Made by a program: the position numbers and the translations under genes. This document shows positions 298 through 54,678 of a stretch of DNA of 64,000 nucleotides, in pieces. Within the stretch, counting starts at the first letter, position 1. Each line of letters begins with the position of its first letter. The notes below the pieces were generated by a model. The model saw only the letters and a list, made by a program, of their open reading frames with translations. It searched no databases and was not told the origin of the DNA. This stretch comes from Laetmonice hystrix (Eukaryota). The stretch spans positions 17,300,001 to 17,364,000 of the forward strand of contig OZ249436.1 in assembly GCA_965235115.1 (NCBI GenBank), written 5' to 3'.

Positions 298-4136
<3,839 letters not shown>

Positions 4137-4614
4137 CGTCTCGAGTTTACGAACCGGATGTATCACCTCTACAAGGAACAAAAAGGAAGAAAGAGAATGA
4201 TGAAGAGTGAAATATCCGGCTACAGGACAGACCTAGGGTCTATAAAAAGGTCCCTTGACAAAGTCGTTCTCTACGCACATGTAGGCCTATAGAGTCTACA
4301 ATTACAATTGACAACGCAAATGTAAAAATGGTAACTCGGGTCTAGCCCTACAACTGAGTAGGCCAGTCCGTCAGCCTAAAAATGTAGGTAGACCTACTAA
4401 CCAAATATGATGTCCTGTATATGGGCTTCCTTCACGTTGGAGCGATTGTAGGAGAATGGATACTCTCTCTTTGGCTTTCGTTACTTATATACATGTATAG
4501 GCCTACCTCACCTTGCTTAGAGAGAGCCCCTTATTAATCCTCTCTAGCCTGTATAATCCTTGTGATAATCGGTATACCACTCTTAAACCGATTGGTGTCC
4601 CTTAGGCTTAGAGC

Positions 4615-33500: not shown

Positions 33501-36500
33501 TAGTAAGCACCGTTTTACATTCTTTGACTTCCGGAAGTGTATCTTACCGCGTCCGCTTGATTCCATCATGGAGGCGATGTTAACCGTCTTACCAAACAGG
33601 CAGTACCTGGGCATCTTGGTTCCCACCACGCCGGCAACAACTGCCCCTACAAAACAAACACAGGGCGGCTTGAACACAGGGTACCTGGGCATCTTAAATG
33701 TCCTTTGGGTTTATAGTCCTTTGAGATATGAAAATATGTGAAAATATGTATGATTCTGGCATATTATGACTGGAAAGATTTTTTGGAAACACAATTTAGA
33801 TTAAAAAAAATATATCGGATAAGAAATCGAATGAAGATCGGGACAGTGTAAGCCCACGTTTGGAAAAACCAGGCTCGGCCATGCCCCGCCCCCCTTCCAA
33901 GAGATCCCTCGGGAATCCCCCGGTTATTTCCGCTCAAAAGTAACCTCGGGGGAATTCAGCGGCATCTTGGGCATTGCATCATGTGTACATTGAGCCAGGA
34001 CTATGATCATGCGAGGGTGATTGGGGTATTTGGTCTGCATCAGGCATGGTAGCAACTGAAATATGGGGTATTTGGTCTGCATCAGGCATGGTAGCAACTG
34101 AAATATGGGGTATTTGGTCTGCATCAGGCATGGTAGCAACTGAAATATAGGTCTAGTGGAGGTTTACCGGAGTGACAGCCGATGCGGAGCCGGAAGTTGG
34201 TGTCCGGAAGGTGCTCAATCTTGATAGTTCCGATAATGGTCATCAGGTCGATTGACATCATGGCGATCTCTGCTGCGTGGCGCTTCCCGTTCCGATGTGG
34301 CAACCCTTGAATTGTCGTTAGGTAGATAATTGAGAAGGTCGACAAGTTCAAAACACAACCTAATGTAACAATAATATAGAAAACTTTATAACTTTTTGAT
34401 ATTTTTACTAAGGAATAATCAATATCCTCGTTTCATGTCCAAACCTGACACTCTGCGCAGGCATACCTCCGACTTTCACGTTCATAATACAAACCTGTTA
34501 AAGCAGAGGTAAAATACCTAACAGAATAATAATACCCGTATGAAATCTATGAAATCATCGACATCCGATCGAGCTATAGTTACAGCTCCACCCTGTGTTG
34601 GGTCTCGTGCTCCGATCATCTTCACAGCGCGAAGATGTCGACATTAGGGGAAAACACGATCGTCTTTTTCAATAGGAGGTGATTTCTTCTGCCGTTTTCA
34701 GTATGTAAACAACATCAAATGAGGTAACTAGTGATGCCGTTGACTATGGACTCTAAGTATCACACAAGTATATTTTTAGAATGTCTGTCTGAAACCTTGA
34801 TCAATTTTTACCTCCACTTTAATGAGCGCTAGGGAATAGGGTTGAAGCAGCAGTACTATGCACCAACAGGTATCAAGGGTTCGTGAAACACCCAGGGTTC
34901 GTGCCCAGCCAGTCGGGTCACTGGGCAGAGAGGCTGGGCAACCCACAAGGAGCTGCTTGTGGCGGCGGTTGAACCCCCACTTGGTCAGCGACTCCCCCCA
35001 ACCCTTCCCACCCACACCACACCTCAACCATACCCCGCCCCCCGGTTTACAGGAGGTCATGCGACCGTACCTGAGGCGACCATGTAGGCGTCACCGATAG
35101 TCTCCACCTTGTAGATGTCGTATTTCTGGATCCTCTTGTCGAACACGGTGTAGAGACCACCAAGCATGGCGACAACTTGAAGCGGAGAGCTTCGAGCCGA
35201 CAGCGACGTGAACCCAACAACGTCCGAGAAAAACAGGGTCGCCTGGAACGGGGCAAATATATCAGTGACACGGGACGGGTACCCTCGAGTGTGAGAAGAT
35301 ATCAGTGACACGGGACGGGTCCCCTGGAGTGGAGGAGAGATATCAGTGACACGGGACGGGTCCCCTGGAGTGTGGGAAGATATCAGTGACACGGGACGGG
35401 TCCCCTGGAGTGGAGGGGAGATATCAGTGACACGGGACGGGTCCCCTGGAGTGGAGGAGATATCAGTGACACGGGACGGGTCCCCTGGAGTGGGGAAAAT
35501 ATCAGTGACACGGGACGGGTCCCCTGGAGTGGAGGAGATATCAGTGACACGGGACGGGTCCCCTGGAGTGTGAGAAGATATCAGTGACACGGGACGGGTC
35601 CCTGGAGTGGGGAAAATATCAGTGACACGGGACGGGTACCCTGGAGTGGAGGAGAGATATCAGTGACACGGGACGGGTCCCCTGGAGTGTGAGAAGATAT
35701 CAGTGACACGGGACGGGTCCCCTGGAGTGTGAGAAGATATCAGTGACACGGGACGGGTACCCTGGAGTGGAGGAGATATCAGTGACACGGGAGGGGTCCC
35801 CTGGAGTGTGAGAAGATATCAGTGACACGGGACGGGTCCCCTGGAGTGTGAGAAGATATCAGTGACACGGGACGGGTCCCCTGGAGTGGAGGAGAGATAT
35901 CAGTGACACGGGACGGGTCCCCTGGAGTGGAGGAGAGATATCAGTGACACGGGACGGGTCCCTGGAGTGTGAGAAGATATCAGTGACACGGGACGGGTCC
36001 CCTGGAGTGTGAGAAGATATCAGTGACACGGGACGGGTACCCTCGAGTGTGAGAAGATATCAGTGACACGGGACGGGTCCCCTGGAGTGTGAGAAGATAT
36101 CAGTGACACGGGACGGGTACCCTGGAGTGGAGGAGATATCAGTGACACGGGACGGGTCCCCTGGAGTGGAGGAGAGATATCAGTGACACGGGACGGGTAC
36201 CCTGGAGTGTGAGAAGATATCAGTGACACGGGACGGGTCCCCTGGAGTGTGAGAAGATATCAGTGACACGGGACGGGTCCCCTGGAGTGTGAGAAGATAT
36301 CAGTGACACGGGACGGGTCCCCTGGAGTGGAGGAGATATCAGTGACACGGGACGGGTCCCCTGGAGTGTGAGAAGATATCAGTGACACGGGACGGGTCCC
36401 CTGGAGTGGAGGAGAGATATCAGTGACACGGGACGGGTCCCTGGAGTGTGAGAAGATATCAGTGACACGGGACGGGTACCCTGGAGTGGAGGAGATATCA

Positions 36501-39500
36501 GTGACACGGGACGGGTACCCTGGAGTGGAGGAGAGATATCAGTAATACGGGACGGGTCCCCTGGAGTGGAGGAGAGATCAGTAACATGGGACGGGTACCC
36601 TGGAGTGGAGGAGAGATATCAGTAACACGGGACGGGTCCCCTCGAGTGGAGGAGAGATATCAGTAACATGGGACGGGTACCCTGGAGTGGAGGAGAGATC
36701 AGTAACATGGGACGGGTACCCTGGAGTGGAGGAGAGATATCAGTAACACGGGACGGGTCCCCTCGAGTGGAGGAGATATCAGTGACACGGGACGGTCCCT
36801 GGAGTGGGAAAGATATCAGTGACACGGGACGGGTACCCTGGAGTGGAGGAGATATCAGTGACACGGGACGGGTCCCCTGGAGTGGAGGAGAGATATCAGT
36901 AACACGGGACGGGTCCCCTGGAGTGGAGGGGAGTGTGACACGGGACGGGTCCCCTGGAGTGGAGGGGAGATATCAGTGACACGGGACGGGTCCCCTGGAG
37001 TGTGAGAAGATATTAGTGACACGGGACGGGTACCCTGGAGTGGAGGGGAGATATCAGTGACACGGGACGGGTCCCCTGGAGTGTGAGAAGATATCAGTGA
37101 CACGGGACGGGTCCCCTGGAGTGGAGGAGATATCAGTGACACGGGACGGGTACCCTGGAGTGTGAGAAGATATCAGTGACACGGGACGGGTCCCCTGGAG
37201 TGTGAGAAGATATCAGTGACACGGGACGGGTCCCCTGGAGTGTGGGAAGATATCAGTGACACGGGACGGGTCCCCTGGAGTGTGGGAAGATATCAGTGAC
37301 ACGGGACGGGTCCCCTGGAGTGTGGGAAGATATCAGTGACACGGGACGGGTCCCCTGGAGTGTGAGAAGATATCAGTGACACGGGACGGGTCCCCTGGAG
37401 TGTGGGAAGATATCAGTAACACGGGACGGGTCCCCTGGAGTGGAGGAGAGATATCAGTAACACGGGACGGGTCCCCTGGAGTGGAGGAGAGATATCAGTA
37501 ACACGGGACGGGTCCCCTGGAGTGGAGGAGAGATATCAGTGACACGGGACGGGTACCCTGGATTGCAGGAGATATCAGTGAAATGGGACGGGTACCCTGG
37601 ACTGGGACAGAGATATTAGCGACACAGGATAGCGCCCCTGCAGTGGGCGAGATACCAGTGACACCGGACAACGTTATACACAGATAAGGAATCATTGCAC
37701 CCCAAGCAGGCCTTTAGGGGTGGGGTAGGTACTTTGGTTACTTACAAACACAGCTAACGACGAGACGTCCCCAGGACGTGACGTCATTATGACGTACCTG
37801 ATCGTAGTTCTCCGCTTCCACCGATTGGTTGCACCGCAGTCGGAGCGCCACCGTCTTGGGCAGAAGTTTGTACACCAGCGTATCTGTACGCTTCTTCTCC
37901 TTGTTTAACTCCTTCGTCCTTCAACAAACATTTTACACACGTTTGGAGAAAAGGGTACCAACCCAGGTGACAAAAAAGGAACCAACAAGGTAAATACCCC
38001 GTATATCTAGAGCAATATATCTAGAGCAATTATGTCAGCGTTTTTAAGCTATTGCCTCTGGAACATTTCTCTGTTCTGGAACAGTTCTCTGTTCTGGAAT
38101 ATTTCTCTGTTCAGAAATTCAATCTACCATATTCTAGGGTTAACGGTTCAGGGGAAAATGCTGGTCGGGGAGAACAATACCCCCCCAGGTTTATCAGATG
38201 AGGGATCCATACCCCTGTAACCCTTGCCCCTGTTACCTTTGGGCGAGGATACCAGAGTATCGCTGGATGTCCGAGGTAAGCACCAACACGGCATTGATAA
38301 TGACCGGGCAGATGAGGATGATAAAACCGAACAAGGCACCAATCAAAGCCGTCGTCTCAAGTTCATTTTTTCGGTTCTTCTCCACCGTCGTTAGAATGCG
38401 TTCCTCCAATAGGTTCTGCTGCAACACGGAGAAACTTTTGACCCGAGCGAAATCTGCGAACCAAGTATCGAAATCGAAGACCCGAATAGCAACATCTGAC
38501 CCAAGGAGCAAACTCTGTTACCCGAGTAGCGAAATTTGTGACCCGAGGATCGAAATCTTCCAGCCGAGAATGTTTGTACACTTCGGCCACAGGTAGTTCT
38601 CTGTGCATTAGAGTCTACGTTTGACCCCCCCCCCCATCCATACCTGATCCCGGCCTCCGGCCTGAATGATATGTTTGTTAATTCCCCAGTTTTCCCAGGC
38701 TACTCACCTGGATATCGAGCAGGGCGTCCATGAGCCAAGTCACGTTTTCATACCACATGGTGCTTTTCGACAAAGATGGCTGGAAGCGGCCGATGCCGTG
38801 CTTTCGTATCTTTTCACGCCATAGTTTGATGTCGTTATATTCAGGCCTTCCCGCCAGCGTCAAGTTGAAAACAGAATACAGCTCGTCCGAGTATTTAAAT
38901 GCATCTTCCAGTGTTGATCTGGCCACGTCCTGGTCCTCGGTGAAGGTGAGAAAATCGTCGCGGCTCTCAAAGCCCCCTTTAGCGTAGAATACAGCGCCAC
39001 GAACGCGCTCCAAGCCGAGCGACTCGCGACTCGAGATGATATGTTGGAGTGCGACGATCTTCTTCCACACGCTACCCGTCTGGATCTCCGTTATCGACTC
39101 GTAGAAGAACTCCACCAACTGATCGATGATTTGCGAGTAGAAAAGCAGCTCTTTGCCGACACTTGGCGGGCTGAGGTCGATGTTATACCGATGGAGGTTG
39201 ACCACGGCCTGTATACCGCCGGCGGTTGTCAGCACTCGCCGGATCGGGGTCTTCATCACAATCCGGGGCAGGGTAGGCACGGAGAACAGGGCATCGTCTG
39301 TCTTGGGGTACACTTTCAGCAGGAACGTCTTCGTCTCGGGGCTGATGGATGATACATAGAGGGCGCTCATGTCGCGCTCCCGCTGGAGGTGGCTCATGAA
39401 TAGTGACAAGTCGACGGAGTTGCGGATCGTTTCGCGGATTCCGCCCGACCTGTAGATCTCATGCAGGCGTAGCCCGAATATGGTACCACCTAGCGCGAGG

Positions 39501-40082
39501 AGTCCGAGTATCGGCACCAGGAATATACCCAGCATCCGAATCAACTGGAGATGTTTTCCACGCCTCGTCAGTGGGTTCCCTGCATCAAGGACGGTCAGGC
39601 GTAACTATGGCGACACGTAAACAGTTGGCGGAAAGACACGGGGGTTAATGAAAAGGGTGGGGGATCGAAATGAGCTTTTAAATCGGAAGTTAAATACCGC
39701 GCTAAGGAGTTTCTGGGGGGGGGGGGGGGCGGATTCACTAATTGAAATTACGTCTCTTCATATTGGACCGGAGAATCAGTACATCTATAATCAGTATGCC
39801 TAATCAGAATCAGTTGAAGACCAAGAGAGTCCGTAACAAACAAATAGGGGCCTATAGCAAGATAGAAAGGACCAACCGACCTTTGCAGTATTTGTCGAGG
39901 CAGAAAGTACCATCGAAGTTATGTTTGGCGAAAATTTCGATGAGGGCTGAGTCCAGTTCCAAGGACGTCGTGGAGTTGGAGTGGAGACTGTCGGACGAGT
40001 GGTTGACATGTTCTGTACCAGGCCCGAAAGAGGGAGCCACTATAGTTTTCTGACCATGCGCCATCTTTCTCAAGAACCACAT
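30460..40082 (-). CDS. NIT-domain transmembrane guanylyl cyclase (NIT-GC), ~682 aa, 10 coding exons
   Basis: Ten exons totalling 2049 nt splice in frame to TGA at 30460. Domains in order: TM1 ([22 protein letters not shown]), NIT motifs [13 protein letters not shown] and [13 protein letters not shown]2 ([21 protein letters not shown]), S-helix [18 protein letters not shown], cyclase [46 protein letters not shown]. Confidence 0.9.
30841..32095. repeat. G-rich compound minisatellite
   Basis: gtggggtgtggacagtggggtgtggggtgttga(c/g)a variants. Confidence 0.95.
32120..32225 (-). CDS. NIT-GC exon 9
   Basis: [35 protein letters not shown]. Confidence 0.8.
32248..33000. repeat. minisatellite, 45 bp unit containing TGACGTCA
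   Basis: ccatgacg(t/c)cacggtacccatggtgacacggtgaccgtgagacc(g/t). Confidence 0.95.
33110..33207 (-). CDS. NIT-GC exon 8
   Basis: [33 protein letters not shown]. Confidence 0.88.
33350..33480. repeat. 35 bp tandem repeat, ~3.5 copies
   Basis: cagcgtctacgtcagtggacacatggacgtggtta. Confidence 0.9.
33548..33646 (-). CDS. NIT-GC exon 7
   Basis: [33 protein letters not shown]. Confidence 0.95.
34023..34148. repeat. 42 bp tandem repeat, 3 copies
   Basis: ggggtatttggtctgcatcaggcatggtagcaactgaaatat. Confidence 0.92.
34168..34305 (-). CDS. NIT-GC exon 6
   Basis: [21 protein letters not shown]...RLRIGCHS. Confidence 0.93.
35071..35242 (-). CDS. NIT-GC exon 5: cyclase
   Basis: [12 protein letters not shown]...[14 protein letters not shown]. 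Confidence 0.95.
35258..37600. repeat. 2.3 kb minisatellite, ~40 bp unit
   Basis: gatatcagtgacacgggacgggtcccctggagtg(tgagaa/gaggaga). Confidence 0.97.
37798..37918 (-). CDS. NIT-GC exon 4: signalling helix
   Basis: [40 protein letters not shown]. Confidence 0.92.
38237..38418 (-). CDS. NIT-GC exon 3: TM2
   Basis: QNLLEERIL...[17 protein letters not shown] acceptor. Confidence 0.88.
38708..39579 (-). CDS. NIT-GC exon 2: TM1 + NIT domain
   Basis: [18 protein letters not shown]...[16 protein letters not shown]; tgcag| ... |gtgagt. Confidence 0.9.
39911..40082 (-). CDS. NIT-GC coding exon 1 (acceptor at 40110; start codon uncertain)
   Basis: [10 protein letters not shown]...FAKHNFD; weak donor G|GTACTT, phase 1 fits the next exon. 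Confidence 0.55.
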
Positions 40083-43000
40083 TAGGCCTATGGGTTTGCC
40101 GTTTTGTGCACTGGAGATAAAAACGGTTTATTTTTGTAATAATACGATAATCGGTTAAATTAATAAGGCACCCTATATATACTGCGGCGACGAGCACATC
40201 GGATAAAGGGCAGATCTCGACAAATTCTAAAGCGAAGCTAGGCCTAATTAGCCATAGGGGGCTATAGGGGCAAGCGGGTCGGGCCTTCCCCTGGAAAAAA
40301 ACAATTTGGAAGGCCAAAAAAACTATATTTCCCGGCATCTGGATATTTATTTTCTGATGGAAATGAGCCTGCCGGACCACTTTGATGTGTCACATTTTCC
40401 GGTGGATCACAGGGGGAGGGGCAGCTATCCCCCTGTATCCCCCGGTCGCTATACAGCTACGGCCCTGTCAAGACACTGATTATTACCAGAGTTTCTTTAT
40501 TAATGAATACATTAAAACTGAATATACCAGGATCAGTGGCGGATCCATGCAGGGAGGGGCGCAGGAGGCGCGAGCCCCATATTTTGGGCAGACTAATCTT
40601 TAAAATCTGGTAGTAGGCCTAAATTAATGGTCATTATCCCATCCCCTACAGGGGGATGGGATCTTCAGATTGTACGGTTTCGTCTTCCCTATTATTATTA
40701 TCCCATCCCCTACGGAGGGGATGGGATTTAGAAATTGTGTGGTTTCGTCTTCTGTATTATTTTTGGCGTCGTAGTTGTAGTAGTAGTAGTAGTAGTAAAC
40801 TTGTATGTCTATCTCAGTCAATTTTCAAAATATCAAAATGAAATTTGGCACACATCTTGACAATGACAAAGTATGGTCAGGCATCGAATCCTGACGTCAT
40901 GTGACGTCACGTCATGACGTGATGACGTCAAACGTCTTATGAAAATTGAAGCCATTTTTAAGCTCATATTGGGAATTTTTTTAAAAAACCCGTCATGCCC
41001 TCATAATGGGCCAAAGGTGCTGCCTCAATTTGAGTCTTGATTTGACCTTTGACCTTTGACCTTAGGGTGAACTGAGTTATTGGTCACAAATCGGTTAAAT
41101 TGCTTCTCCTTCTCTATTTTTTGGTAAAATTCGACAATATTCGGCAAAAACACTCTCTAACGAAAGGTTCACAATACGATTCCAAGGATTAGCGATTTGA
41201 CCTATTTTCGCCGAACCACGTGACTTTGAAGTTTGTCACTTTTGACATTTTTTTCTAAAACTGCTTTAGTCATATAGGAATCGTGTATTTGGTCACTAGA
41301 TATGTGCTGCTATTCACGATTGGTCACTTTGCATATTTCTTTTCATAAATTTACCAATATTTTTTTTATTTATGATGAAATAATGTAATCTGACGTTGAC
41401 AGGCTCTACCTTAAACCTGTTTAAGATAGCCATATACAAATACAACAATTACAAAGTGTATAGATTCAGGTATACCACTGACTGTTTAGTTCTTGTTTTG
41501 GAAAGGTAATATGGCCAGAATTGTAAGTTTTAATGGGTATAGTCTTCACTATAATATTTTTACACTCTGACAGGTGGCATCTCTGAATACACAAATCACC
41601 TGCTGGGAGGCCAGAGCCAGGGTCGGCAGAGGGTTACGTAAGCGCTGGTGATAAGGGCCGGCCAGGCGGCCGGGTCGGCAGGCGGGTTGTGACTCCGCCC
41701 CCTCCCTCCCAGTCAGGGTCGGTTTGGTGGAGGATGATTGTGTATTCAGAACTGACATAACTGAATTAGCTGTGCCTTTGAACTGTAGATATAACTGTCT
41801 AATGCATTTGTTTTTAAATCTTACATAGGAGAGCTGAATAAAACACTAGGCTACTACTGATTGTTGGCTGTGGAGTTCAAGAGACACGGCAAACTTTTGG
41901 CCAGCTGCACTTGGTTTCAGCGTGAGCCAACAGCCTGGTGTGGATGACATTCGCACCTATTGTTCTTGAGTCTGTGAGATTTTTCATGATGCCCGTAACG
42001 GGTATAATCCATATAATCCATAAGGACTATAATATTTCATAATGTCAAAAGGATACTTAGTAACTTCCATGTGAATGGAAATGACGCTATTGTTGGGACA
42101 ATAATTAAATGAGAGAAAAATATAGGTAATGATAGAAAACCATTCGGGAAATGGGACCTACCTGTATTGCTTGGCAATCAGAGTCTCTAGATATAATTAC
42201 GATTTTAATGTATCCTTCCACAATGATTAATATATCAAAATAGGTAGATATACCATGCAGTAGATCTCTATGATCCCTTTCGACATGTCAGGGGCGTATC
42301 TGCACTCTTTCTTTTTGAAGAATTGACATTATTGTTAGGCTAGGTCTAAATACAGCCACGTATCTAGGATTTTCAGCAGGGTGGTCGCCGAAATGTTTTT
42401 TTTTTAAATTAGAAGCCTTTTATGGACCCATTTAGTGCACCATATTTTGTGTAGGCCTATTCATCACTCAACCAGTTTAAAATAGGCAGAAGGCTTTGCA
42501 CCTGTTCGTTCGATGGTGTGCCGCTGAATCTAAGGAAAAATGAATCTATGCTCTGGGGGAGCAGGAGAGGGGGTCCAACCCCCGGACCCCTACATGCGCC
42601 TGAAATACTTTGAGAAACTTCACATCTAGCTCCAGAAGTAACGTTCTTTGACTTTCTAAATTCAATCCCCCCCCCCCGCGCCCATGTTCGCCTTGCACCT
42701 TTGGTGCCCCTCCTTTCTTGCGGTACTGGATCTGAGCCTGCATGAAAGCAGGATCATGACGTATGAGATTATAATGATATTAACATTATTTTCCTAAGCC
42801 TCCAACTCGTAAACGGTGAAAGATTGAGCCATGGTTACTATTGAACAGGAATAGGAAGTCATATATCACGTGACTCCCCGGGGATGGGATCAATTGTGGT
42901 ATCGCCACAACGTGTCTAGTTATCCCATCCCCTACGGAGGGGATGGGATTTAGAAATTGTGTGGTTTCGTCTTCTGTATTATTATCCCATCCCCTACGGA

Positions 43001-46000
43001 GGGGATGGGATTTAGAAATTGTGTGGTTTCGTCTTCTGTATTATTTTTGGCGTCGTAGTTGTAGTAGTAGTAGTAGTAGTAGTAGTAAACTTGTATGTCT
43101 ATCTCAGTCAATTTTCAAAATATCAAAATGAAATTTGGCACACATCTTGAAAATGACAAAGTATGGTCAGGCATCGAATCCTGACGTCATGTAACGTCAC
43201 GTCATGACGTGATGACGTCAAACGTATTATGAAAATTGAAGCCATTTTTAAGTTCATATTGGGAATTTTTTTTAAAAACCCGTCATGCCCTCATAATCGG
43301 CCAAAGGTGCTGCCTCAATTTGAGTCTTGATTTGACCTTTGACCTTTGACCTTAGGGTGAACTGGGTCATTGGTCACAAATCGGATAAATTGCTTCTCCT
43401 TCTCTATTTTTTGGTAAAATTCGACAATATTCGGCAAAAACACTCTCTAACGAAAGGTTCACAATACGATTCCAAGGATTAGCGATTTGACCTATTTTCG
43501 CCGAACCACGTGACTTTGAAGTTTGTCACTTTTGACATTTTTTTCTAAAACTGCTTTAGTCATATAGGAATCGTGTATTTGGTCACTAGATATGTGCTGC
43601 TATTGACGATTGGTCACTTTGCATATTTCTTTTCATAAATTTACCAATATCTTTTTTATTTATGATGAAATAATGTAATCTGACGTTGACAGGCTCTACC
43701 TTAAACCTGTTTAAGATAGCCATATACAAATACAACAATTACAAAGTGTATAGATTCAGGTATACCACTGACTGTTTAGTTCTTGTTTTGGAAAGGTAAT
43801 ATGGCCAGAATTGTAAGTTTTAATGGGTATAGTCTTCACTATAATATTTTTACACTCTGACAGGTGGCATCTCTGAATACACAAATCACCTGCTGGGAGG
43901 CCAGAGCCAGGGTCGGCAGAGGGTTACGTAAGCGCTGGTGATAAGGGCCGGCCAGGCGGCCGGGTCGGCAGGCGGGTTGTGACTCCGCCCCCTCCCTCCC
44001 AGTCAGGGTCGGTTTGGTGGAGGATGATTGTGTATTCAGAACTGACATAACTGAATTAGCTGTGCCTTTGAACTGTAGATATAACTGTCTAATGCATTTG
44101 TTTTTAAATCTTACATAGGAGAGCTGAATAAAACACTAGGCTACTACTGATTGTTGGCTGTGGAGTTCAAGAGACACGGCAAACTTTTGGCCAGCTGCAC
44201 TTGGTTTCAGCGTGAGCCAACAGCCTGGTGTGGATGGCATTCGCACCTATTGTTCTTGAGTCTGTGATATTTGTCATGATGCCCGTAACGGGTATAATCC
44301 ATATAATCCATCAGGACTATAATATTTCATAATGTCAAAAGAATACTCAGTAACTTCCATGTGAATGGAAATGACGCTATTGTTGGGACAATAATTAAAT
44401 GAGAGAAAAATATAGGTAATGATAGAAAACCATTCGGGAAATGGGACCTACCTGTATTGCTTGGCAATCAGAGTCTCTAGATATAATTACGATTATAACG
44501 TATCCTTCCACAATGATTAATATATTAAAATAGGTAGATATACCATGCAGTAGATCCCTTTTGACATGTCAGGGGCGGATCTGCACTCTTTCTTTTTGAA
44601 GAATTGACAAATATTATTGTTAGGCTAAGTCTAAATACAGCCACGTGTCTAGGATTTTCAGCAGGGTGCTCTCTGAAATTTTTTAAAATAAGAAGCTCTT
44701 AGACGCGATTTTTCCACCTTTTATGGACCCTTTTAGTGCATTATATTTTGTGTAGACCCCTATTCATCACTCAACGAGTTTAAAATAGGCGGAATGCTTG
44801 GCACCTGTTCGTTCGATGTTGTTCTGTTGAATCTAAGGGAAAAAGAATCTGTGCTCTGGGGAAGCAGGAGAGGGGGTACAACCCCCGGACCCCTATCGAC
44901 ATGCGCCTGAAATACTTTGAGAAACTTCACATCTCGCTCCAAAAGTAACGTTCTTTGACTTTCTAAATTCAGCCCCCCCCCCGCGCCCATGTTCGCCTTG
45001 CACCTTTGGTGCCCCTCCTTTCTTGCGGTACTGGATCTGAGCCTGCATGAAAGCAGGATCATCACGTATGAGATTATAATGATGTTAACATTATTTTCTT
45101 AAGCCTCCAACTCGTAAACGGTGAAAGATTGAGCCATGGTTACTATTGAACAGGAATAGGAAGTCATATATCACGTGACTCCCCGGGGATGGGATCAATT
45201 GTGGTATCGCCACAACGTGTCTAGTTTTTGGCGTCGTAGTTGTAGTAGTAGTAGTAGTAGTAAACTTGTATGTCTATCTTAGTCAATTTTCAAAATATCG
45301 AAATGAAATTTGGCACACATCTTGACAATGACGAAGTATGGTCAGGCATCGAATCCTGACGTCATGTGACGTCACGTCATAACGTGATGACGTCAAACGT
45401 ATTATGAAAATTGAAGCCATTTTTAAGCTCATATTGGGAATTTTTTTAAAAACCCGTCATGGCCTCATAATCGGCCATAGGTGCTGCCTCAATTTGAGTC
45501 TTGATTTGACCTTTGACCTTTGACCTTAGGGTGAACTGGGTCATTGGTCACAAATCGGTTAAATTGCTTCTCCTTTTCTATTTTTTAGTAAAATTAGACA
45601 ATATTCGGCAGAAACACTCTCTAACGAAAGGTTCACAATACGATTCCAAGGATTAGCGATTTGACCTATTTTCACCGAACCACGTGACTTTGAAGTTTGT
45701 CACTTTTGACATTTTTTTCTAAAACTGCTTTAGTCATATAGGAATCGTGTATTTGGTCAATAGGTATGTGCTGCTATTGACGATTGGTCACTTTGCATAT
45801 TTCTTTTCATAAATTTACCAATATCTTTTTTATTTATGATGAAATAATGTAATCTGACGTTGACAGGCTCTACCTTAAACCTGTTTAAGATAGCCATATA
45901 CAAATACAACAATTACAAAGTGTATAGATTCAGGTATACCACTGGCTGTTTAGTTCTCGTTTTGGAAAGGTAATATGGCCAGAATTGTAAGTTTTAATGG

Positions 46001-46209
46001 GTATAGTCTTCACAATAATATTTTTGCCGTCTGACAGTTGACATCTCTGAATACACAGATCTCCCACTGTGATGCGGCCGCCGGTCCCTGGCCAGGCCGG
46101 GAGAGAGTTACGTAAGTGCTGGTGATAAGGGCCGGCGCCGGCCCGCCGGCCCGCCGGCCGGCCTACTCCCCCCTCCCTCCCAGTGAGGGAGGAATATGAT
46201 TGTGTATTC

Positions 46210-46414
46210 AGGTTCTATCCCCCATGATAACTTTCCACGAAATGTTTGGGCAGGGGTTAGGGTTAATGTCAGGGATAGGGGTAGGGTAGGGATATGTTTT
46301 GGGGAGGTGTAGGAACTGGGGTTAGGGGTTAGGGGTTAGGGATAAGGTCAGGGCCATGGATCTTTCCTTTCCACCAAATTTCGTGGAGTTTAAGTTATCA
46401 TGGGCGATATACCT
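46210..46414. mobile_element. 205 bp MITE with 6 bp TSD, TTAGGG-rich core
   Basis: AGGTTCTATCCCCCATGATAAC / GTTATCATGGGCGATATACCT; TSD GTATTC; empty site visible in the paralogous unit at 41742-41747. Confidence 0.85.
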
Positions 46415-49400
46415 GTATTCAGAACTGACTTAGCTGTGCCTTTGAACTGTAGGTGTAACTGCCTAATGCATTTGTTTTTGAATCTTATGTAGGAGAGCTG
46501 AATAAAACAATACTACTGATTGTTGGTTGTGGAGTTCAAGTGACACGACAAGCTTTTGGTCAGCTGCACTTGGTTTAGCCTGAGCCAACAGTCTGGTGTG
46601 GATGACATTCGCACCTATTGGTAAAGTTTCATGATGTATGACTACGTGTTGGCTAAATGGCGAGAGATAGAAGTGAACGAACGGTGTGCACAGTAGACAG
46701 GTATGCAGTCGTCCTGGCGAGCGGCACACACAATAGATTGCAGCCATCACTTGAGCGGGTCTGCGGAAGGGAGAAGGGGAACGCTCTGTGAGAAATACTT
46801 AAGGACTGTTTATGGAAGATGTACCTTCTCAGTCATATAACATGCCAGCTATCGGGCGGCAGCTCTCAATCAAAGGAGCCGGTCAGGGGGCGGTCAGTTA
46901 ATTGGACGTGGGCCACCGGCCAATGACCAGTGACCATCCTTTAAACTAGGACTGGGGCAAAAACGTGAACGAGGGGATATATAAGAGCACCAAGAGAGAG
47001 AGAGAGAGAGAGACTAGGGGAGAAGGAGCAGAGAAAGGACAGAGATATAGATTTGACTATGAGGAACATATAGACACTGACTGCCTAGTGACATATTGGT
47101 CGAAGCGGGACAACCGTGTGCCTCAGGAATAAAAACTTCAAAACTCAAGCGACGACTCTACTACCAAAAAGAAATGTTAACAAGGGTGAAGAGAAAATTA
47201 GCACTGTAATTAGACACATTGAACTGTTATGTTATGACGCTATCATTTTTGTATAATACTAAAATATATAGGAAAGCACTTGTCAGTGCACATGTCAACT
47301 TGCCATGGGCAGATGCGCCCAGAAAAAAATGAATGCCGGGCGGTAGTTTTGCGCTAGCAGCGAAGGCGCAAGGTTTTCAGTTGGCAAGGGGTGCAGATGG
47401 GGAGATATTTTTTCAGATGATAGGCCTGATAAAAATTCTTGCCGGGCAGCACTTAAACCATTTTAGTTTTGTGCCAGGCGGCTAAAATCGGTGCCGGGTG
47501 GCGCCGCCCGGCGTGGGCACATCCCTCTATACCCCCACTCTTTCTTTTTGAAGAATTGACAAAAAATTATTGTTAGGCTAGCCACGGGTCCAGGATTTTC
47601 AGCAGAGGGGTCTCGGGAAATCTTTAAAAATTAAAAGCTCTTAGAAGCGATTTTCCGCCTTTTAGGGCCATTTTAGGGCATTATATTTTGTGGATTCGTC
47701 ACTCAACCAGTTGAAAATAGCCGGAATGCTTTGCACCTGTTCGTTCCGTGTTGAAGGGAAAAAGAATCTATGTTCTGGCGGAGAATGGGGTCTACCGACA
47801 CGCGCCTTAAATACTTTGAGAAACTTTACATCTATCTCCAGAAATAGCATTTTTTGACCTTCTAAATTCCAGCAAAGAACCTCGATACCATATCGAGGTT
47901 CTCTGATTCAAGTCCCCGCCCACATGTTCGCCTCGCACCTCTGGTGCCCCTCCTTTTGTGCAGTGCTGGATCTGTGCATGCCTGCGGGAGGAGCATGACG
48001 TTATGATGTTATCATTATTTCTTCAGCCTATAACTTGTAAACGGTGCAAGATGGAGCCATGGTTACTATTGAACAGGAATAGGAAGTCATATACATTGTA
48101 TGCTCTTTCAATTGACACCAAGATTTATGATGTAATGTAAGGCCCCTATCATTATTATGTCATAATGATGCCATTGACATCTTCGAAGGTTTCTAAATCC
48201 TAAACCATTCAAGATAGAGCAATGGTTACCATTTAACCCTAATAGGAAGTCATATATGATCTTTCACTTGACATTTTTTTACGTGACTTGACTGGCATCA
48301 TAAGGTGTCATAGGTATTTTTCTCAGGGCTATAACTTGTAAATGGTAGAAGTTAGAGCTATAGTTACTATTAGCCTAAACAGTAATAGGAAGTCATATAG
48401 CCTACATGCTCTTTCATTTGAGACCAAGATTCATTACGCAGTATGACGTGTCACCTCATAATTACGTCATTGGCATCTTCTAAAGCTTATAGGTCATTAA
48501 CTGTGCAAGATCGAGCCATAGTTTACCCTACTCAGAACATGTCATATAGGCCTATCACGTGACTCCCCGGGGATGGGATCAATTGTGGTATCGCCACAAC
48601 GTGTCTAGTTATCCCATCCCCTACGGAGGGGATGGGATTTAGAAATTGTGTGGTTTCGTCTTCTGTATTATTTTTGGCGTCGTAGTTGTAGTAGTAGTAG
48701 TAGTAGTAAACTTGTATGTCTATCTTAGTCAATTTTCAAAATATCGAAATGAAATTTGGCACACATCTTGACAATGACGAAGTATGGTCAGGCATCGAAT
48801 CCTGACGTCATGTGACGTCACGTCATAACGTGATGACGTCAAACGTATTATGAAAATTGAAGCCATTTTTAAGCTCATATTGGGAATTTTTTTAAAAACC
48901 CGTCATGGCCTCATAATCGGCCATAGGTGCTGCCTCAATTTGAGTCTTGATTTGACCTTTGACCTTTGACCTTAGGGTGAACTGGGTCATTGGTCACAAA
49001 TCGGTTAAATTGCTTCTCCTTTTCTATTTTTTAGTAAAATTAGACAATATTCGGCAGAAACACTCTCTAACGAAAGGTTCACAATACGATTCCAAGGATT
49101 AGCGATTTGACCTATTTTCACCGAACCACGTGACTTTGAAGTTTGTCACTTTTGACATTTTTTTCTAAAACTGCTTTAGTCATATAGGAATCGTGTATTT
49201 GGTCAATAGGTATGTGCTGCTATTGACGATTGGTCACTTTGCATATTTCTTTTCATAAATTTACCAATATCTTTTTTATTTATGATGAAATAATGTAATC
49301 TGACGTTGACAGGCTCTACCTTAAACCTGTTTAAGATAGCCATATACAAATACAACAATTACAAAGTGTATAGATTCAGGTATACCACTGGCTGTTTAGT

Positions 49401-49648
49401 TCTCGTTTTGGAAAGGTAATATGGCCAGAATTGTAAGTTTTAATGGGTATAGTCTTCACAATAATATTTTTGCCGTCTGACAGTTGACATCTCTGAATAC
49501 ACAGATCTCCCACTGTGATGCGGCCGCCGGTCCCTGGCCAGGCCGGGAGAGAGTTACGTAAGTGCTGGTGATAAGGGCCGGCCCCCGGCCGGCCTGCCGG
49601 CCTACTCCCCCCTCCCTCCCAGTGAGGGAGGAATATGATTGTGTATTC

Positions 49649-49853
49649 AGGTTCTATCTCCCATGATAACTTTCCACGAAATGTTTGGGCAGGGGTTAGG
49701 GTTAATGTCAGGGATAGGGGTAGGGTAGGGATATGTTTTGGGGAGGTGTAGGAACTGGGGTTAGGGGTTAGGGGTTAGGGATAAGGTCAGGGCCATGGAT
49801 CTTTCCTTTCCACCAAATTTCGTGGAGTTTAAGTTATCATGGGGGATATACCT
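49649..49853. mobile_element. second copy of the 205 bp MITE (duplicated with its host)
   Basis: same termini and GTATTC TSD as 46210-46414. Confidence 0.85.
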
Positions 49854-52706
49854 GTATTCAGAACTGACTTAGCTGTGCCTTTGAACTGTAGGTGTAACTG
49901 CCTAATGCATTTGTTTTTGAATCTTATGTAGGAGAGCTGAATAAAACAATACTACTGATTGTTGGTTGTGGAGTTCAAGTGACACGACAAGCTTTTGGTC
50001 AGCTGCACTTGGTTTAGCCTGAGCCAACAGTCTGGTGTGGATGACATTCGCACCTATTGGTAAAGTTTCATGATGTATGACTACGTGTTGGCTAAATGGC
50101 GAGAGATAGAAGTGAACGAACGGTGTGCACAGTAGACAGGTATGCAGTCGTCCTGGCGAGCGGCACACACAATAGATTGCAGCCATCACTTGAGCGGGTC
50201 TGCGGAAGGGAGAAGGGGAACGCTCTGTGAGAAATACTTAAGGACTGTTTATGGAAGATGTACCTTCTCAGTCATATAACATGCCAGCTATCGGGCGGCA
50301 GCTCTCAATCAAAGGAGCCGGTCAGGGGGCGGTCAGTTAATTGGACGTGGGCCACCGGCCAATGACCAGTGGCCATCCTTTAAACTAGGACTGGGGCAAA
50401 AACGTGAACGAGGGGATATATAAGAGCACCAAGAGAGAGAGAGAGAGAGAGACTAGGGGAGAAGGAGCAGAGAAAGGACAGAGATATAGATTTGACTATG
50501 AGGAACATATAGACACTGACTGCCTAGTGACATATTGGTCGAAGCGGGACAACCGTGTGCCTCAGGAATAAAAACTTCAAAACTCAAGCGACGACTCTAC
50601 TACCAAAAAGAAATGTTAACAAGGGTGAAGAGAAAATTAGCACTGTAATTAGACACATTGAACTGTTATGTTATGATGCTATCATTTTTGTATAATACTA
50701 AAATATATAGGAAAGCACTTGTCAGTGCACATGTCAACTTGCCATGGGCAGATGCGCCCAGAAAAAAATGAATGCCGGGCGGTAGTTTTGCGCTAGCAGC
50801 GAAGGCGCAAGGTTTTCAGTTGGCAAGGGGTGCAGATGGGGAGATATTTTTTTCAGATGATAGGCCTGATAAAAATTCCTGCCGGGCAGCACTTAAACCA
50901 TTTTAGTTTTGTGCCAGGCGGCTAAAATCGGTGCCGGGTGGCGCCGCCCGGCGTGGGCACATCCCTCTATACCCCCACTCTTTCTTTTTGAAGAATTGAC
51001 AAAAAATTATTGTTAGGCTAGCCACGGGTCCAGGATTTTCAGCAGAGGGGTCTCGGGAAATCTTTAAAAATTAAAAGCTCTTAGAAGCGATTTTCCGCCT
51101 TTTAGGGCCATTTTAGGGCATTATATTTTGTGGATTCGTCACTCAACCAGTTGAAAATAGCCGGAATGCTTTGCACCTGTTCGTTCCGTGTTGAAGGGAA
51201 AAAAGAATCTATGTTCTGGCGGAGAATGGGGTCTACCGACACGCGCCTTAAATACTTTGAGAAACTTTACATCTATCTCCAGAAATAGCATTTTTTGACC
51301 TTCTAAATTCCAGCAAAGAACCTCGATACCATATCGAGGTTCTCTGATTCAAGTCCCCGCCCACATGTTCGCCTCGCACCTCTGGTGCCCCTCCTTTTGT
51401 GCAGTGCTGGATCTGTGCATGCCTGCGGGAGGAGCATGACGTTATGATGTTATCATTATTTCTTCAGCCTATAACTTGTAAACGGTGCAAGATGGAGCCA
51501 TGGTTACTATTGAACAGGAATAGGAAGTCATATACATTGTATGCTCTTTCAATTGACACCAAGATTTATGATGTAATGTAAGGCCCCTATCATTATTATG
51601 TCATAATGATGCCATTGACATCTTCGAAGGTTTCTAAATCCTAAACCATTCAAGATAGAGCAATGGTTACCATTTAACCCTAATAGGAAGTCATATATGA
51701 TCTTTCACTTGACATTTTTTTACGTGACTTGACTGGCATCATAAGGTGTCATAGGCATTTTTCTCAGGGCTATAACTTGTAAATGGTAGAAGTTAGAGCT
51801 ATAGTTACTATTAGCCTAAACAGTAATAGGAAGTCATATAGCCTACATGCTCTTTCATTTGAGACCAAGATTCATTACGCAGTATGACGTGTCACCTCAT
51901 AATTACGTCATTGGCATCTTCTAAAGCTTATAGGTCATTAACTGTGCAAGATCGAGCCATAGTTTACCCTACTCAGAACATGTCATATAGGCCTATCACG
52001 TGACTCCCCGGGGATGGGATCAATTGTGGTATCGCCACAACGTGTCTAGTTCTTTGCGTCGTAGTAGTAGTAGTAGTAGTAGTAAACAGTGGCGTCTATC
52101 TCAGTCAGTTTTCAAGATATCTCAATCAAATTTGGCACACATCTTGACCATGACAAGGACTGGTCAGACAATGAGTTGTGACATATCACGTGACGTGACG
52201 TATGACGTCACGTCATGACGTTCATATTGGGAATTTCCAAACCCCATCATGGCGTTTTAATCAGGCAAGGGTCTAGTCTAACATGGACCCTTCATTTGTC
52301 ATTTGACCTTGAACTTTGGGAGAACTGGGTCCTCAGTCACAAATCTCTTAAATCGCTACTCCTTCTTCATTTTTTGGTGAAATTCGACAATATTAGGCAG
52401 ACGGACTCTCTAACATGAGCTTGTCTCAAATCATCAAAAGATAAGCGATTTGACTAATATTCGCTGAATCACGTGACTTTGAAATTTCGAAAAATTGTCA
52501 ATTTTCTAGAACTTGTAAACGGTGCCAGATTTGGCATTGGTTACTATTACACACAGATAAGAAGTCATTATGCTCTTTTATGATATTTTTTTTTTCAGGT
52601 CACGTGACCATTTTTAAAAATTAGAGGGAAAAAACAAAAAGAAAAAGAAACGTGACTCGGCCTGGGATTGAACGCGGGACCCTTCCGGTAGAAGTCCAAA
52701 AAAATA

Positions 52707-52781
52707 GGTGACTCGGCCTGGGATTGAACCGGCGACCCATAGCATATGAGTCAAGACACTTATCGCCAGTGCTACGCCATC
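52707..52781 (-). pseudogene. tRNA-like fragment (CAT at anticodon-like position) or SINE head
   Basis: Minus strand reads ...TTGACTCATATGC..GGTTCAATCCCAGGCCGAGTCACC with a B box. A partial duplicate lies at 52652-52698. The cloverleaf pairs poorly. Confidence 0.4.
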
Positions 52782-54019
52782 TGACAAGCTAATACTGGAT
52801 TGAACTGGTACTGATTACCACAGCCAGTGAACCTATATTTTGTGAGGGCTATAACTTGCTATCACTTGGTATCGTCATCCTTAAGGTCACGTGACCTGTG
52901 ACGTCGTAAAGATGTCATCGATATTTTCTAAGGGATATAACTTGTTAATGCTTGAAGTTAGACCCATAGTTACTATTGAACACGAATAGGAAGTCATGTA
53001 TACTCTTTCGTTTGGCATCATTATTTCTTAGGTCACGTGACCCATGACATAACGATGTCATCGATATTTTCTCAGGGTTTTAACTTGTAAATGGTAGGAG
53101 TTAGACCCATAGTTAGTATTGAATATAAACAGGAAGTCCTCATTATGTTCTTTCAATTGACACCAAGATTTATTCTGTTGTGTGATCTATTACATCCTTA
53201 TGACGTAACTGAGCCCTTCTAAGGATTGGTAGAAGCCTGTAACTAGCAAACGGTGCTAGATACACCTATAGTTATTTTTGAACATGAATAGGAAGTCCAT
53301 TGAGATCAATATTTATGACGTAGCATAAGGTCATAATGACGTAACTTCCATCTTCTAAGGCTCATAAGTCGTCACGGGTGCAAGATAGTACCATAGTTAT
53401 CCCTATTCAGAACATGTTACATGGGACACCCCGGGGATGGGATCCATTGTGGTACTCCACAACGTATCTAGTTAACCATGAAACGGCCCTTATTTCCCGT
53501 ACTGCAACCAGCTCTGAAATCTACAGCAGATACTGTAGCCACAGGGTTAATGTAGGCCTATGTGCATGCACAATATTAATGTAGTGGGCAGTGCTAACAC
53601 TGCAGCCTGGAGTTTAACAGTATAGGGCAGTTGGCTTCCAGGTATCAATGCTATATATAGGCCTATATATCGGGTGGGCCTAAAAATTTTGGAACACTCT
53701 TTTCTGGACTGTAACTTCTATAATTTTTAGCTCAATGTCATAATATTTTTGGAACATGATACCATCTGGTTAATTGGGGCATGTGGTACAAATTTCAGAT
53801 AAATAGGTCAAAATGTCTAAAAATAGGGCCATACGCGTTTCTCGGTACCAAATCTTTGGCCAGGTCTCAATACTTGATGAGGTCTACTGGTAAGTTGACT
53901 TTACCCATTTTTGTTAAAACGGCAGCTTGACCGTCTGCGACGCTACCTATAGTGGCTGTTCTGGGGTGATTCGCTTCTCGACACGCTCTGGTGGATATGG
54001 ACTTTAAAGTGCGTGTTAA

Positions 54020-54678
54020 GGCCTGTACCCACTATCGCGTTTTACCGCTGCGGTCCCCGGTGCGGGAAATCGCGACGCACAACGCCGAAAATTGGCGGCA
54101 AAAAAACCGTCGCCGCTGCGGCCGACGCACAGGGGGAAAATCCGTTGCAAAAATAGCATTCGACGCGATTAACCGCAACGAGGCGTGGGGCATACCATGG
54201 CATGACATCCATAATTTGGGCCAAAATATACAAGAAAATGGAGGTGGTCAGGAGATATGACTCGCCTACCTGCCTTGAACGACCAGGATGGCAGATTTCA
54301 TTGAGAGATTGATAGTATAGAGGTTGAGAAACACCCCAGCCTCTATGATCAACAAATCCATGGCAGAGTACAAGGATGTTGAAAAGTAAGTGATGGTACT
54401 CTCCATACGTTTCTCTCTACCGCAGTAATTCATGAACAGACCTCATGACTTTGCTTTCTCTTCCTTGTTTTGCTATTAGGTATAGGCTAACGCGAAAATA
54501 TCGGTAAAATTCTGACTCTGAGTTCGACATGTCCCCTCAAGAGGAGTGAATGATGACCGGTATGCGCTTTTCTGCCTCAGTGGGAACACGTTACCTAATC
54601 AGGGCCGCCGCGATTTCCCGTCGCGGGAATTCGCAGCGTTTTTGGCTGAGCGACAAAACGCACTAGTGGGTTCAGGCC
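54020..54678 (+). mobile_element. non-autonomous PIF/Harbinger-like element with MADF/Myb remnant
   Basis: TIR GGCCTGTACCCACTA / TAGTGGGTTCAGGCC between TTAA sites; the internal remnant translates EVEKHPSLYD...EYKDVEK (MADF-like). Confidence 0.7.

Follow-up and report, generated by a model that had tools for sequence, protein, structure and literature searches.

The window, by which is meant the whole 64-kb stretch of DNA analysed, contains five same-strand copies of a non-coding element of rolling-circle type stacked in one 12.8-kb block. The features of the stack, with strand and content, are as follows.

40630..40635, + strand: genomic target, its left half reading GTCAT^T; the right flank resumes from 53473 (TAACC)
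40634..40699, + strand: head 0, belonging to the outer copy of the 1.49-kb subfamily; TT, 5' subTIR ATCCCATCCCC paired with its inverted repeat (IR) arm (40636-40662), TAT tract, and the opened TT at 40698-40699
40699..42920, + strand: copy 1, a member of the 2.2-kb subfamily; head followed by a (GTA)n microsatellite, a body containing a single core unit, the 3' subTIR at 42880-42890, a 3' stem-loop and CTAG-T
42921..42982, + strand: head 2a, the head of copy 3, opened at TT 42982-42983; 62-bp period, 100% match
42983..45225, + strand: copy 2, a 2.2-kb subfamily member lying within the head of copy 3; mosaic, 2.4% from copy 1
45226..48609, + strand: body and tail of copy 3 (3.4-kb subfamily), with four ~150-bp core units ahead of the tail
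46211..46413, no strand assigned: MITE of 203 bp with terminal inverted repeats and the 8-bp duplication TGTATTCA; second instance in copy 4 at 49650-49852
48610..52050, + strand: copy 4, an intact 3.4-kb element head-to-tail behind copy 3; 99.5% identical to copy 3
52051..53472, + strand: body and tail of the outer copy, pairing with head 0; carries a (GTA)n microsatellite and core units, with the 3' subTIR at 53433-53443, a stem-loop and CTAG-T

Exact matches to the subTIR motif ATCCCATCCCC lie at 40636, 40700, 42922, 42984 and 48611, and its complement, GGGGATGGGAT, has ten matches, five as arms of head hairpins and five as 3' subTIRs. With up to one mismatch the motif occurs 16 times in the 64 kb, 15 of them inside the stack, against a shuffle mean of 1.6 and with none of 100 shuffles reaching 16. 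Tail ends (..CTAG) fall at 42919, 45224, 48608, 52049 and 53471. By this motif and junction reading of the 64-kb window, five heads balance five tails in the order H0 H1 B1 H2a H2b B2 B3 H4 B4 B5, which, taken as brackets, allows a single matching and bears out the heads, tails and order of the original prediction. No other copies of the family were found in the remaining 51 kb of the window. The stack, whose self site was originally conjectured to be a safe harbour, lies ~550 bp upstream of the likely start codon of a neighbouring guanylate cyclase gene.

The anatomy of the copies is, as read from their sequence, that of a non-autonomous HINE/HLE2 element, in agreement with the HINE/Helentron assignment originally made. 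The 11-bp subTIRs are present in all five copies, with ATCCCATCCCC after the 5' TT and GGGGATGGGAT starting ~40 nt before the 3' end. In both head types the 5' IR pairs with the 5' subTIR in an 11-12-bp stem (z -5.0 and -5.6, 0/200 shuffles each), the hairpin of head 0 folding at -14.3 kcal/mol (0/200 shuffles as good). A stem-loop with a TTGTGG/CCACAA stem lies between the 3' subTIR and the end in the MFE fold of both tail types, and the whole-tail fold is weakly better than shuffles (11/200 and 38/200 as good). All five bodies carry a (GTA)n microsatellite behind the 5' IR; core units are spaced 121-163 bp apart in bodies 3, 4 and 5, and bodies 1 and 2 have one unit each. The 203-bp MITE, which we take to be hAT-like from the rule on 8-bp TSD length, was inherited by copies 3 and 4 and is absent from copies 1 and 2. 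A single stop-to-stop frame of at least 120 aa occurs in the stack (132 aa) and has no Pfam match, and an Rfam search of the stack gave no match.

A canonical Helitron (HLE1), with a 5' TC, no inverted repeats and a 3' hairpin plus CTRR, was rejected: these copies do have a 3' CTAG, but they begin with TT/TA and carry subTIRs. Statements on published work, here and below, refer to the portions of each source available to us; there, the Helentron in the strict sense is told from Helitron2 by an endonuclease domain in the autonomous transposase (PMC11417382). The head pattern, as a mark of an autonomous RepHel partner with the same ends, had no match in prokaryote genomes and one match in metagenome contigs, an unrelated hairpin with neither body nor tail in the 800 bp examined.

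Junctions and the shared TT

All eight boundary junctions have one TT in common, to the base. Heads start at ggtca TT ATCCC, ccctattatta TT ATCCC, CTAG TT ATCCC (twice) and gtatta TT ATCCC, and tails exit at CTAG TT tttggcg, CTAG TT ctttgcg and CTAG TT aacc. The outer 1.49-kb copy occupies a genomic T^T, with head and body parted at the TT closing the TAT tract; the equivalent head site of the 3.4-kb copy 3 is occupied by the 2.2-kb copy 2, whose junctions at TT 42982-42983 support the nesting that had been proposed. In both subfamilies the cut follows the last TAT unit, at offsets of 62 and 64 from the 5' end, and short 5' termini are duplicated in direct order (H0-H1, 64-bp offset; H2a-H2b, 62-bp offset). 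Joining both flanks yields GGTCAT^TAACC as the probable empty genomic site, and the uninterrupted heads provide internal empty sites for comparison of the TT. The junctions fit insertion at T^T without a TSD, and fit equally a 2-bp TT duplication or an element of the form TT...CTAG inserted in A^T. The tail site is TAGT^T, unlike the TNAT^T of the three other targets. Each insertion, as the sequence reads, keeps a head and its TT intact, so that the site is reusable and the stack able to go on growing.

Subfamilies, copy number and the count of insertions

Bodies 3 and 4 differ by nine substitutions and three indels in 3.38 kb (~0.3%); between bodies 1 and 2 there are 52 substitutions and eight indels in 2.17 kb. 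Of the 31 variable columns without gaps in the first 830 bp, 21 separate copies 1/2 from copies 3/4, and the body at 52051-53472 shares 64-72% identity with the others. Interiors are 70-91% alike from one subfamily to another, and the heads and terminal 56 nt are identical. The stack, on these comparisons, draws on three subfamilies, of 1.49, 2.2 and 3.4 kb, rather than the two originally named, the outer copy constituting a separate one. Copies 1 and 2 are mosaic, with 585 bp free of substitutions (p ~1e-5 under a uniform distribution) adjoining 330 bp at 7.9%, and later recombination or conversion between copies may have edited the sequence.

Short Logan contigs of four runs, out of six, were placed on 39900-54200, three of the runs (X3, X4 and X6) coming from one sample and the fourth (X1) from an independent marine metagenome. 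Among the matches listed, the body of the outer copy shows 0/177, 8/727 and 1/484 differences from contigs of the low-coverage run X6 and 0/176 and 1/374 from contigs of X1; contigs of other variants are also present, with 14-23 differences in 125-190 bp. By this comparison the outer copy stands close to the consensus of a 1.49-kb subfamily with multiple copies and is ruled out as a decayed relic. Of the claim that the host copy was older and diverged, what stands is that the self site was used in a different subfamily, at 64-72% identity; the relic status does not. Single contigs reach 76-132 times the depth of the unique flank, giving a rough floor of ~100 near-identical copies, a figure taken from single-contig depth, as summed depth is not copy number.

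At least seven of the 52 sites at which copies 1 and 2 differ carry the letter of copy 1 among the 40 variant rows listed, and at sites 44628 and 44690 both letters occur at depths far above single copy. A TAT unit is missing or added at 40689-40690 in 12 and 5 contigs, respectively, of X3 and in 9 and 8 of X4, at a mean depth of ~16-47 times the unique flank. Such contigs make sense only if they cross the tract into a next head, and their depth therefore suggests many head-head joints elsewhere in the genome. The listing covers 15 joints out of 395, 24 loose ends out of 3472 and 32 pieces out of 28953; among these there was neither a junction-bridging piece, nor an array-spanning piece, nor an empty allele, a result that carries no weight either way.

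An assembly artefact, with repeats misjoined or haplotypes placed in tandem, would be most plausible for copies 3 and 4, given their 99.5% identity, and would fit with no contig among those listed spanning the array or bridging its junctions. However, a single rule holds at all junctions to the base, the numbers of heads and tails agree, a T^T is restored when the flanks are joined and every copy is distinct from every other, and a false duplication of copies 3 and 4 would not affect the two nested events. We judge such an artefact highly improbable, the least probable of the alternatives considered.

In a token model of the stack, head-head and tail-body junctions are not obtainable by crossover from other junction types. 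Simple tandem duplication, which cannot yield either joint, was rejected, and repeated targeting, as first proposed, is upheld both by these joints and by the different family-wide variants of copies 1 and 2. Four of five scenarios with two insertions are without a needed junction type, and the fifth requires copies 1 and 2 to be duplicates. In that scenario a 3.4-kb dimer and then a 2.2-kb copy were inserted, after which unequal crossover took place twice, by way of the 62-bp heads and 56-bp tails; the token model does reach the observed order in two rounds, and the 585-bp substitution-free stretch common to copies 1 and 2 is in its favour. Copies 1 and 2 would then be younger duplicates than copies 3 and 4, yet the divergence between them is ~10 times greater (2.4%, compared with 0.2-0.3%) and in part involves variants common to many other copies, making the scenario very unlikely.

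Since variants present across the family distinguish copies 1 and 2, the stack is likely to have arisen from at least three separate insertions. Two of these were necessarily at the TT behind a head, and the others were there or at a 3' end. Copies 3 and 4 may have come in as a single rolling-circle dimer, or one may be a later duplicate, which brings the number of events needed down from four to three. Placement of copies 1, 3 and 4 at the site of head 0, as originally suggested, accords with the head-to-tail CTAG TT ATCCC joints, but an insertion either behind head 0 or at the 3' end of a resident copy would produce them, the sequence fitting both equally.

A proposed targeting model for the self site

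Our somewhat favoured reading is that at least three rolling-circle insertions entered the TT behind a resident 5' hairpin (or the TT of a 3' end), probably through a transposase that binds the subTIR motif and opens the DNA ~30-36 nt behind it. The 3' arm of the hairpin, GGGGATGGGAT, is identical to the 3' subTIR and on the same strand, and for this reason the head could act as a false right end. The motif lies 29-30 nt from the true 3' end and 33-36 nt from the self site; at the tail-head joints the 30-nt distance is true by construction. An autonomous RepHel encoded elsewhere in the genome would bind the motif and nick the first suitable T^T, and an incoming circle would have its 5' T joined to the 3'-OH of the head, giving a head-head joint; the equivalent reaction at a true right end would give a tail-head joint.

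The other 51 kb offers 475 TNATT, 141 TTATT and 12 TATTATT sites, none with a copy of the family. Given the first nested event, two later events would fall at a head site with a chance of 0.0011 were every TNATT of the stack an equally good target, and of 3.5e-5 window-wide; with TATTATT as the target the same test gives p 0.29 inside the stack and a mild p 0.035 window-wide. A plain sequence preference, in which the transposase favours any (TAT)nT tract and the tract stands behind each hairpin by chance, without tethering to the subTIR, would make the within-stack result expected (p 0.29), and it accords both with the T-rich targets of HINEs (PMC4067079, PMC7492417) and with a cut that tracks the last TAT unit (offsets 62 and 64) as a motif rather than a ruler. 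Against it, TATTATT was used at none of the 12 sites outside the stack and none of the three non-head sites inside, the target of the outer copy, GTCAT^T, is not a TAT repeat, and the nested copies are all on one strand. Plain preference is on balance unlikely, if the most serious of the alternatives.

Tethering has evidence against it as well, as the motif-to-cut offset varies, at 33 and 36 nt compared with 29-30 nt, the TAGT^T of the tail site departs from the TNAT^T of the other targets, and Helraiser (HLE1) made no local hops in 701 events (PMC4778049). No motif lies upstream of the genomic target of the outer copy, so untethered insertion occurs too, and the inference of targeting comes from one locus. 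Likeness of head and tail past the 11-nt motif is weak, with 180/5000 shuffles as good for the young pair and 2930/5000 for the old; extended homology, not being significant, was dropped as support for a false right end.

The stack could also be a composite or concatemer partly built elsewhere, by transposition that started at the outer head and bypassed inner 3' ends, with fewer local events. Multi-head FoHeli copies move as units (PMC5148889), Helraiser is known for end bypass and circles (PMC4778049), copies 3 and 4 are ~0.3% apart, and head-head joints are, judging by contig depth, seemingly multi-copy. Such a unit would measure 5.7-11 kb and require up to three bypasses, and insertion at the self site would still be required somewhere in the family, moving the question rather than removing it; we hold this origin to be decidedly unlikely.

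A broader form of the favoured tethering model is offered tentatively, as doubtful but possible: the 5' hairpin arm of DINE-1/HINE elements, as a copy of the 3' subTIR on the same strand, may be a built-in false right end, behind which RepHel cuts at about one subTIR-to-end distance and pastes circles. If so, each family would have its own reusable homing site common to its subfamilies, one targeting rule would cover the heads that HLE2 elements stack, their arrays in head-to-tail order and their double left ends, and the order of insertion could be read from stacks.

Comparison with known systems

HINE and DINE-1-like non-autonomous Helentrons insert in dispersed T-rich sites and share with the present copies the subTIRs, 5' IR nested with a subTIR, microsatellite, central repeats, 3' stem-loop, T-flanked ends and lack of coding sequence (Thomas et al. 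2014, PMC4067079). The available part of that work describes no stacks at one internal self site, however, and the copies here end in CTAG before T, there an end of proto-Helentrons/Helitrons. Cg_HINE of Crassostrea gigas and DTC84 of Donax, also from marine invertebrates, have the same modular plan, core repeats of ~150 bp and TT (or 'AA TSD') ends (PMC7492417, PMC3879986), but their arrays derive from internal repeats and the elements are dispersed in both orientations, whereas the present block consists of whole elements. The word 'nested' occurs 0 times in the main texts of PMC7492417 and PMC3879986. Target choice by HLE2 (Helitron2/Helentron) is given in the available text only as 'between T and T' (PMC4067079, PMC11417382), and no self-site stack is described in the accessible portions of bioRxiv 10.64898/2026.02.10.705023, PMC13085455 and PMC3630058; Paramecium Helitrons target telomere repeats, nested insertion being merely proposed (PMC13085455).

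The Helitron2-type FoHeli1 of Fusarium oxysporum has stacked 5' ends, up to five, that are put down to self-insertion (Chellapan et al. 2016, PMC5148889; TR4 study PMC13342296), and its 5' target context is TNAT, as at three of three targets here (PMC5148889). The base after TNAT is T in a legend of PMC5148889 and A in its text. FoHeli1 differs in being fungal, in its varying duplicated lengths (31, 65, 73 and 85 nt) and in having several 5' ends per one 3' end (PMC5148889), whereas the stack here keeps both host halves, uses one site across subfamilies 64-72% alike and has balanced heads and tails. A numerical fit between the two (65 nt is close to the sum of the hairpin end and the 51-bp IR-to-end distance) was post hoc, concerned one of four lengths and was not counted. 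Among animals, the HLE2 element HelenXT233 of Xenopus tropicalis has two directly repeated left ends, each of which marks a subfamily (HELIANO, PMC11417382), but it is one double head on an autonomous element, for which the available text of PMC11417382 gives neither a self-targeting explanation nor a stack. The proposed mechanism resembles that of AAV Rep68 at AAVS1, where an HUH protein integrates at a target that mirrors its own binding and nicking sites (PMC11780844); this is an analogy only, involving a virus and a host locus, an SF3 helicase and no transposon.

The element type and self-insertion near the 5' end are thus already known, the latter as proposed for Fusarium Helitron2, and what is new is precision and a testable mechanism rather than a new class. 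A base-precise self site reused by three subfamilies is a natural experiment on enzyme recognition, from which a testable rule (motif plus ~30-36 nt) is offered; it gives whole elements a route to repeat blocks on the 10-kb scale beside genes, and accounts for double left ends that confuse annotation. Beside the related fungal self-insertions, the stack is unusually clean.

Anatomy and boundaries of the nested block

The block at 40634..53472 holds five same-strand copies, each with a head (H: 5' subTIR hairpin, TAT tract and TT), a tail (3' subTIR, stem-loop and CTAG-T) and a body (B), in the order H0 H1 B1 H2a H2b B2 B3 H4 B4 B5. The original prediction of a nested stack of HINE-type rolling-circle copies with five heads and five tails in this order was borne out: the same heads and tails were recovered, the stack is real and clean with HINE/HLE2-type anatomy, and a single TT is common to all eight boundary junctions.

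40699..42920, copy 1
42983..45225, copy 2, nested in the head of copy 3
42921..42982 (head) and 45226..48609 (body), copy 3
48610..52050, copy 4
40634..40699 (head 0) and 52051..53472 (body 5), outer copy

Every copy reads, from 5' to 3', a subTIR paired with an IR arm, a short TAT tract, a (GTA)n microsatellite, the body, with core units of ~150 bp, a 3' subTIR, a small stem-loop and CTAG-T. For each of the two head types, none of 200 shuffles was as stable as the head hairpin. The modular plan is the same as that of DINE-1/Cg_HINE, as described in excerpts of PMC4067079 and PMC7492417, and on their sequence anatomy the stack elements are HINE/HLE2-type. No frame of the stack gave a Pfam match, and the stack gave no Rfam match either. 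Of the 16 matches in 64 kb to the 11-mer ATCCCATCCCC or its complement (at most one mismatch; 1.6 expected), 15 lie in the stack, and one 30-bp weak match aside, no further family copies were found in the rest of the window. Since every target is A-T-T, three parses of the element ends fit equally well: an element T...T in a T^T target, a duplicated TT, or an element TT...CTAG in an A^T target. One contig of an independent marine metagenome (X1) stops at 53473, the TT behind CTAG, which is consistent with the stack's 3' boundary.

Judged by its sequence, the DNA of the window is animal genome. It carries exons that encode Tektin, NIT and guanylate cyclase domains, along with a reverse transcriptase of LINE type (Pfam matches in 4 of the 15 frames tested):

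39881-about 40082, 38678-39579 and 35057-35659, minus strand, NIT-domain guanylate cyclase gene (Pfam; exons inferred from frames and splice signals)
3318-4232, minus strand, Tektin-domain exon (Pfam match)
58629-60470, plus strand, reverse transcriptase frame of 613 aa (domain match), a LINE-type retrotransposon piece

A phase-1 intron after the likely first coding exon of the guanylate cyclase gene gives ...DKYCK-G-NPLT, and ~550 bp separate the likely start codon (40082 or 40064, minus strand) from the stack's 5' end, which lies upstream of it. The nested copies disrupt no fresh host sequence, yet put 11.4 kb beside a probable promoter. The safe-harbour role given to the self site in the original prediction is a conjecture. 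The left half of the window (6300-37700) is unusually rich in intronic and intergenic minisatellites, with periods of 14-48 bp and lengths of up to 2.4 kb.

Subfamilies and number of insertions

Copies 1 and 2 are 2.2 kb long and copies 3 and 4 are 3.4 kb long, with identity between the pairs falling from ~91% in the first kb to ~70% near the 3' end. Despite these interiors, the first 116 nt of copies 1 and 4 are identical, as are the last 56 nt across both subfamilies (42864-42919, 45169-45224, 48553-48608, 51994-52049), where the adjoining sequence is 70% alike. The tail of the 2.2-kb subfamily seems to stem from a deletion that joined the GTCATAT repeat in the first core unit to the one in the last. 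A stretch of ~0.9 kb in the 3.4-kb subfamily (~46621-47535 and 50060-50975), with a (GA)n run and AATAAA, lacks any equivalent in copies 1 and 2. A MITE is likewise present in copies 3 and 4 and absent from copies 1 and 2:

46211-46413 and 49650-49852, MITE of 203 bp with a GGGGTTA-rich interior, terminal inverted repeats and an 8-bp duplication

Contigs from three runs of one sample (X3, X4 and the low-coverage X6) and from X1 were aligned to 39900-54200. Contig depth over the MITE bins is among the highest of the aligned region, so the MITE is probably an abundant family in its own right. Single contigs reach 76-132x the unique-flank depth, where summed depth does not equal copy number; this puts a floor of roughly one hundred on the number of close copies in the element family.

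The outer copy, 1.49 kb long and 64-72% identical to the others, had been described as older and diverged. It was the earliest to arrive, but is no decayed relic: short contigs match it almost exactly, with 0/177, 8/727 and 1/484 differences in X6 and 0/176 and 1/374 in X1 (among 32 of 28953 pieces listed), and X1 has zero cover on the stack's unique left flank. By these matches it belongs to a third multi-copy subfamily and lies near its consensus; it is older in arrival order only. Body 5 carries two short tRNA-like repeats at 52650-52790 (GACTCGGCCTGGGATTGAAC..), and metagenome contigs have loose ends there; the repeats may be what is left of a SINE that the 1.49-kb subfamily picked up.

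Crossover confined to homologous parts makes no new junction types, and four of five two-insertion starts tested lack a required junction type. The fifth, a 3.4-kb dimer whose first head then took in a 2.2-kb copy, attains the observed order after two rounds of crossover. Under this route, however, copies 1 and 2 would be duplicates that postdate copies 3 and 4, yet they are 2.4% apart versus 0.2-0.3%. Moreover, at least 7 of the 52 sites that differ show copy 1's letter in other contigs (among 40 variant rows listed, with 830 more), and at two of those seven both letters far exceed single-copy depth. The divergence and the shared variants make separate donors likely for copies 1 and 2, and with them three or more insertions, two of them necessarily at a head site. 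The claim of repeated targeting is thus retained in that form, but copies 3 and 4 could be part of a single dimer. The one or two insertions that produced the tail|head joints could have gone to the TT restored after head 0 or to a resident 3' end; insertion at the former would place the newest copy next to head 0. Copies 1 and 2 are also mosaic, with 585 substitution-free bp (41361-41946 versus 43651-44236; p ~1e-5) adjoining a 330-bp stretch at 7.9%, which indicates that recombination or conversion also acted, at the locus or among donors.

Use of the self site

The self site is the TT closing the TAT tract behind the head hairpin. With the first nested event taken as given, the probability that two later events both land on head sites within the stack is 4.3e-6 if every TT is eligible, 0.0011 if only TNATT sites are and 0.017 if only TTATT sites are; over the whole window the TNATT and TTATT figures are 3.5e-5 and 4.3e-4. 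With the 7-mer TATTATT as target the probability is 0.29 in the stack and 0.035 window-wide, and a narrow preference for this sequence is therefore a viable explanation at a single locus. However, none of the 12 TATTATT sites outside the stack and none of the three non-head sites inside it were used, and the outer copy's own target is GTCAT^T. All three independent targets read TNAT^T, the same 5' target context as in the Fusarium Helitron2-type elements FoHeli1/2 (excerpts of PMC5148889).

At 40689-40690, one TAT unit fewer or more is seen in 12 and 5 contigs of X3 and in 9 and 8 of X4, where mean depth is 16-47x the unique flank; no such gaps were found in X6 or X1 contigs. We infer that these contigs continue into a next head, since the aligner would open such a gap in no other case, which would lend indirect support for stacked heads genome-wide. 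It is very probable that the nest was built through repeated self-site insertion.

Possible tethering and known systems

The 11-mer of the 3' subTIR recurs, without a change of strand, as the 3' arm of the head hairpin. Counted downstream from this motif, the true 3' end comes after 29-30 nt and the self site after 33 nt (young copies) or 36 nt (outer copy). In Helraiser rolling-circle transposition, the cut right end is joined to the left end to give a circle (excerpts of PMC4778049), and at integration a cut target is likewise joined to the element's left end. RepHel, the transposase of the autonomous partner, may bind a resident motif and open the nearest usable T^T downstream of it; heads would thereby be treated as false right ends, while the true ones would serve as targets too. 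The selection of AAVS1 by AAV Rep, an HUH protein whose target mirrors its own sites, is a precedent (excerpts of PMC11780844). Tethering by the subTIR motif is slightly favoured, whereas its strict false-right-end form is rather unlikely. Against tethering, the motif-to-cut spacing is inexact (33/36 versus 29-30 nt), tail sites do not read TNAT^T, and no local hopping was seen in 701 Helraiser events according to excerpts of PMC4778049. Head-tail likeness beyond the 11-mer is weak (180/5000 and 2930/5000 shuffles as good).

A full-text search of mainly openly available papers found none on a false-right-end rule, and none on animal HINEs that form balanced stacks at a single fixed self site. 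Clustered and tandem insertion has reportedly been seen in maize and centromeric Helitron studies. In the excerpts consulted, self-insertion was proposed for Fusarium Helitron2 elements, leaving stacked 5' ends of 31-85 nt (PMC5148889), Fusarium TR4 strains carry as many as five stacked 5' ends (PMC13342296), and one Xenopus HLE2 element carries a pair of left ends as direct repeats (PMC11417382).
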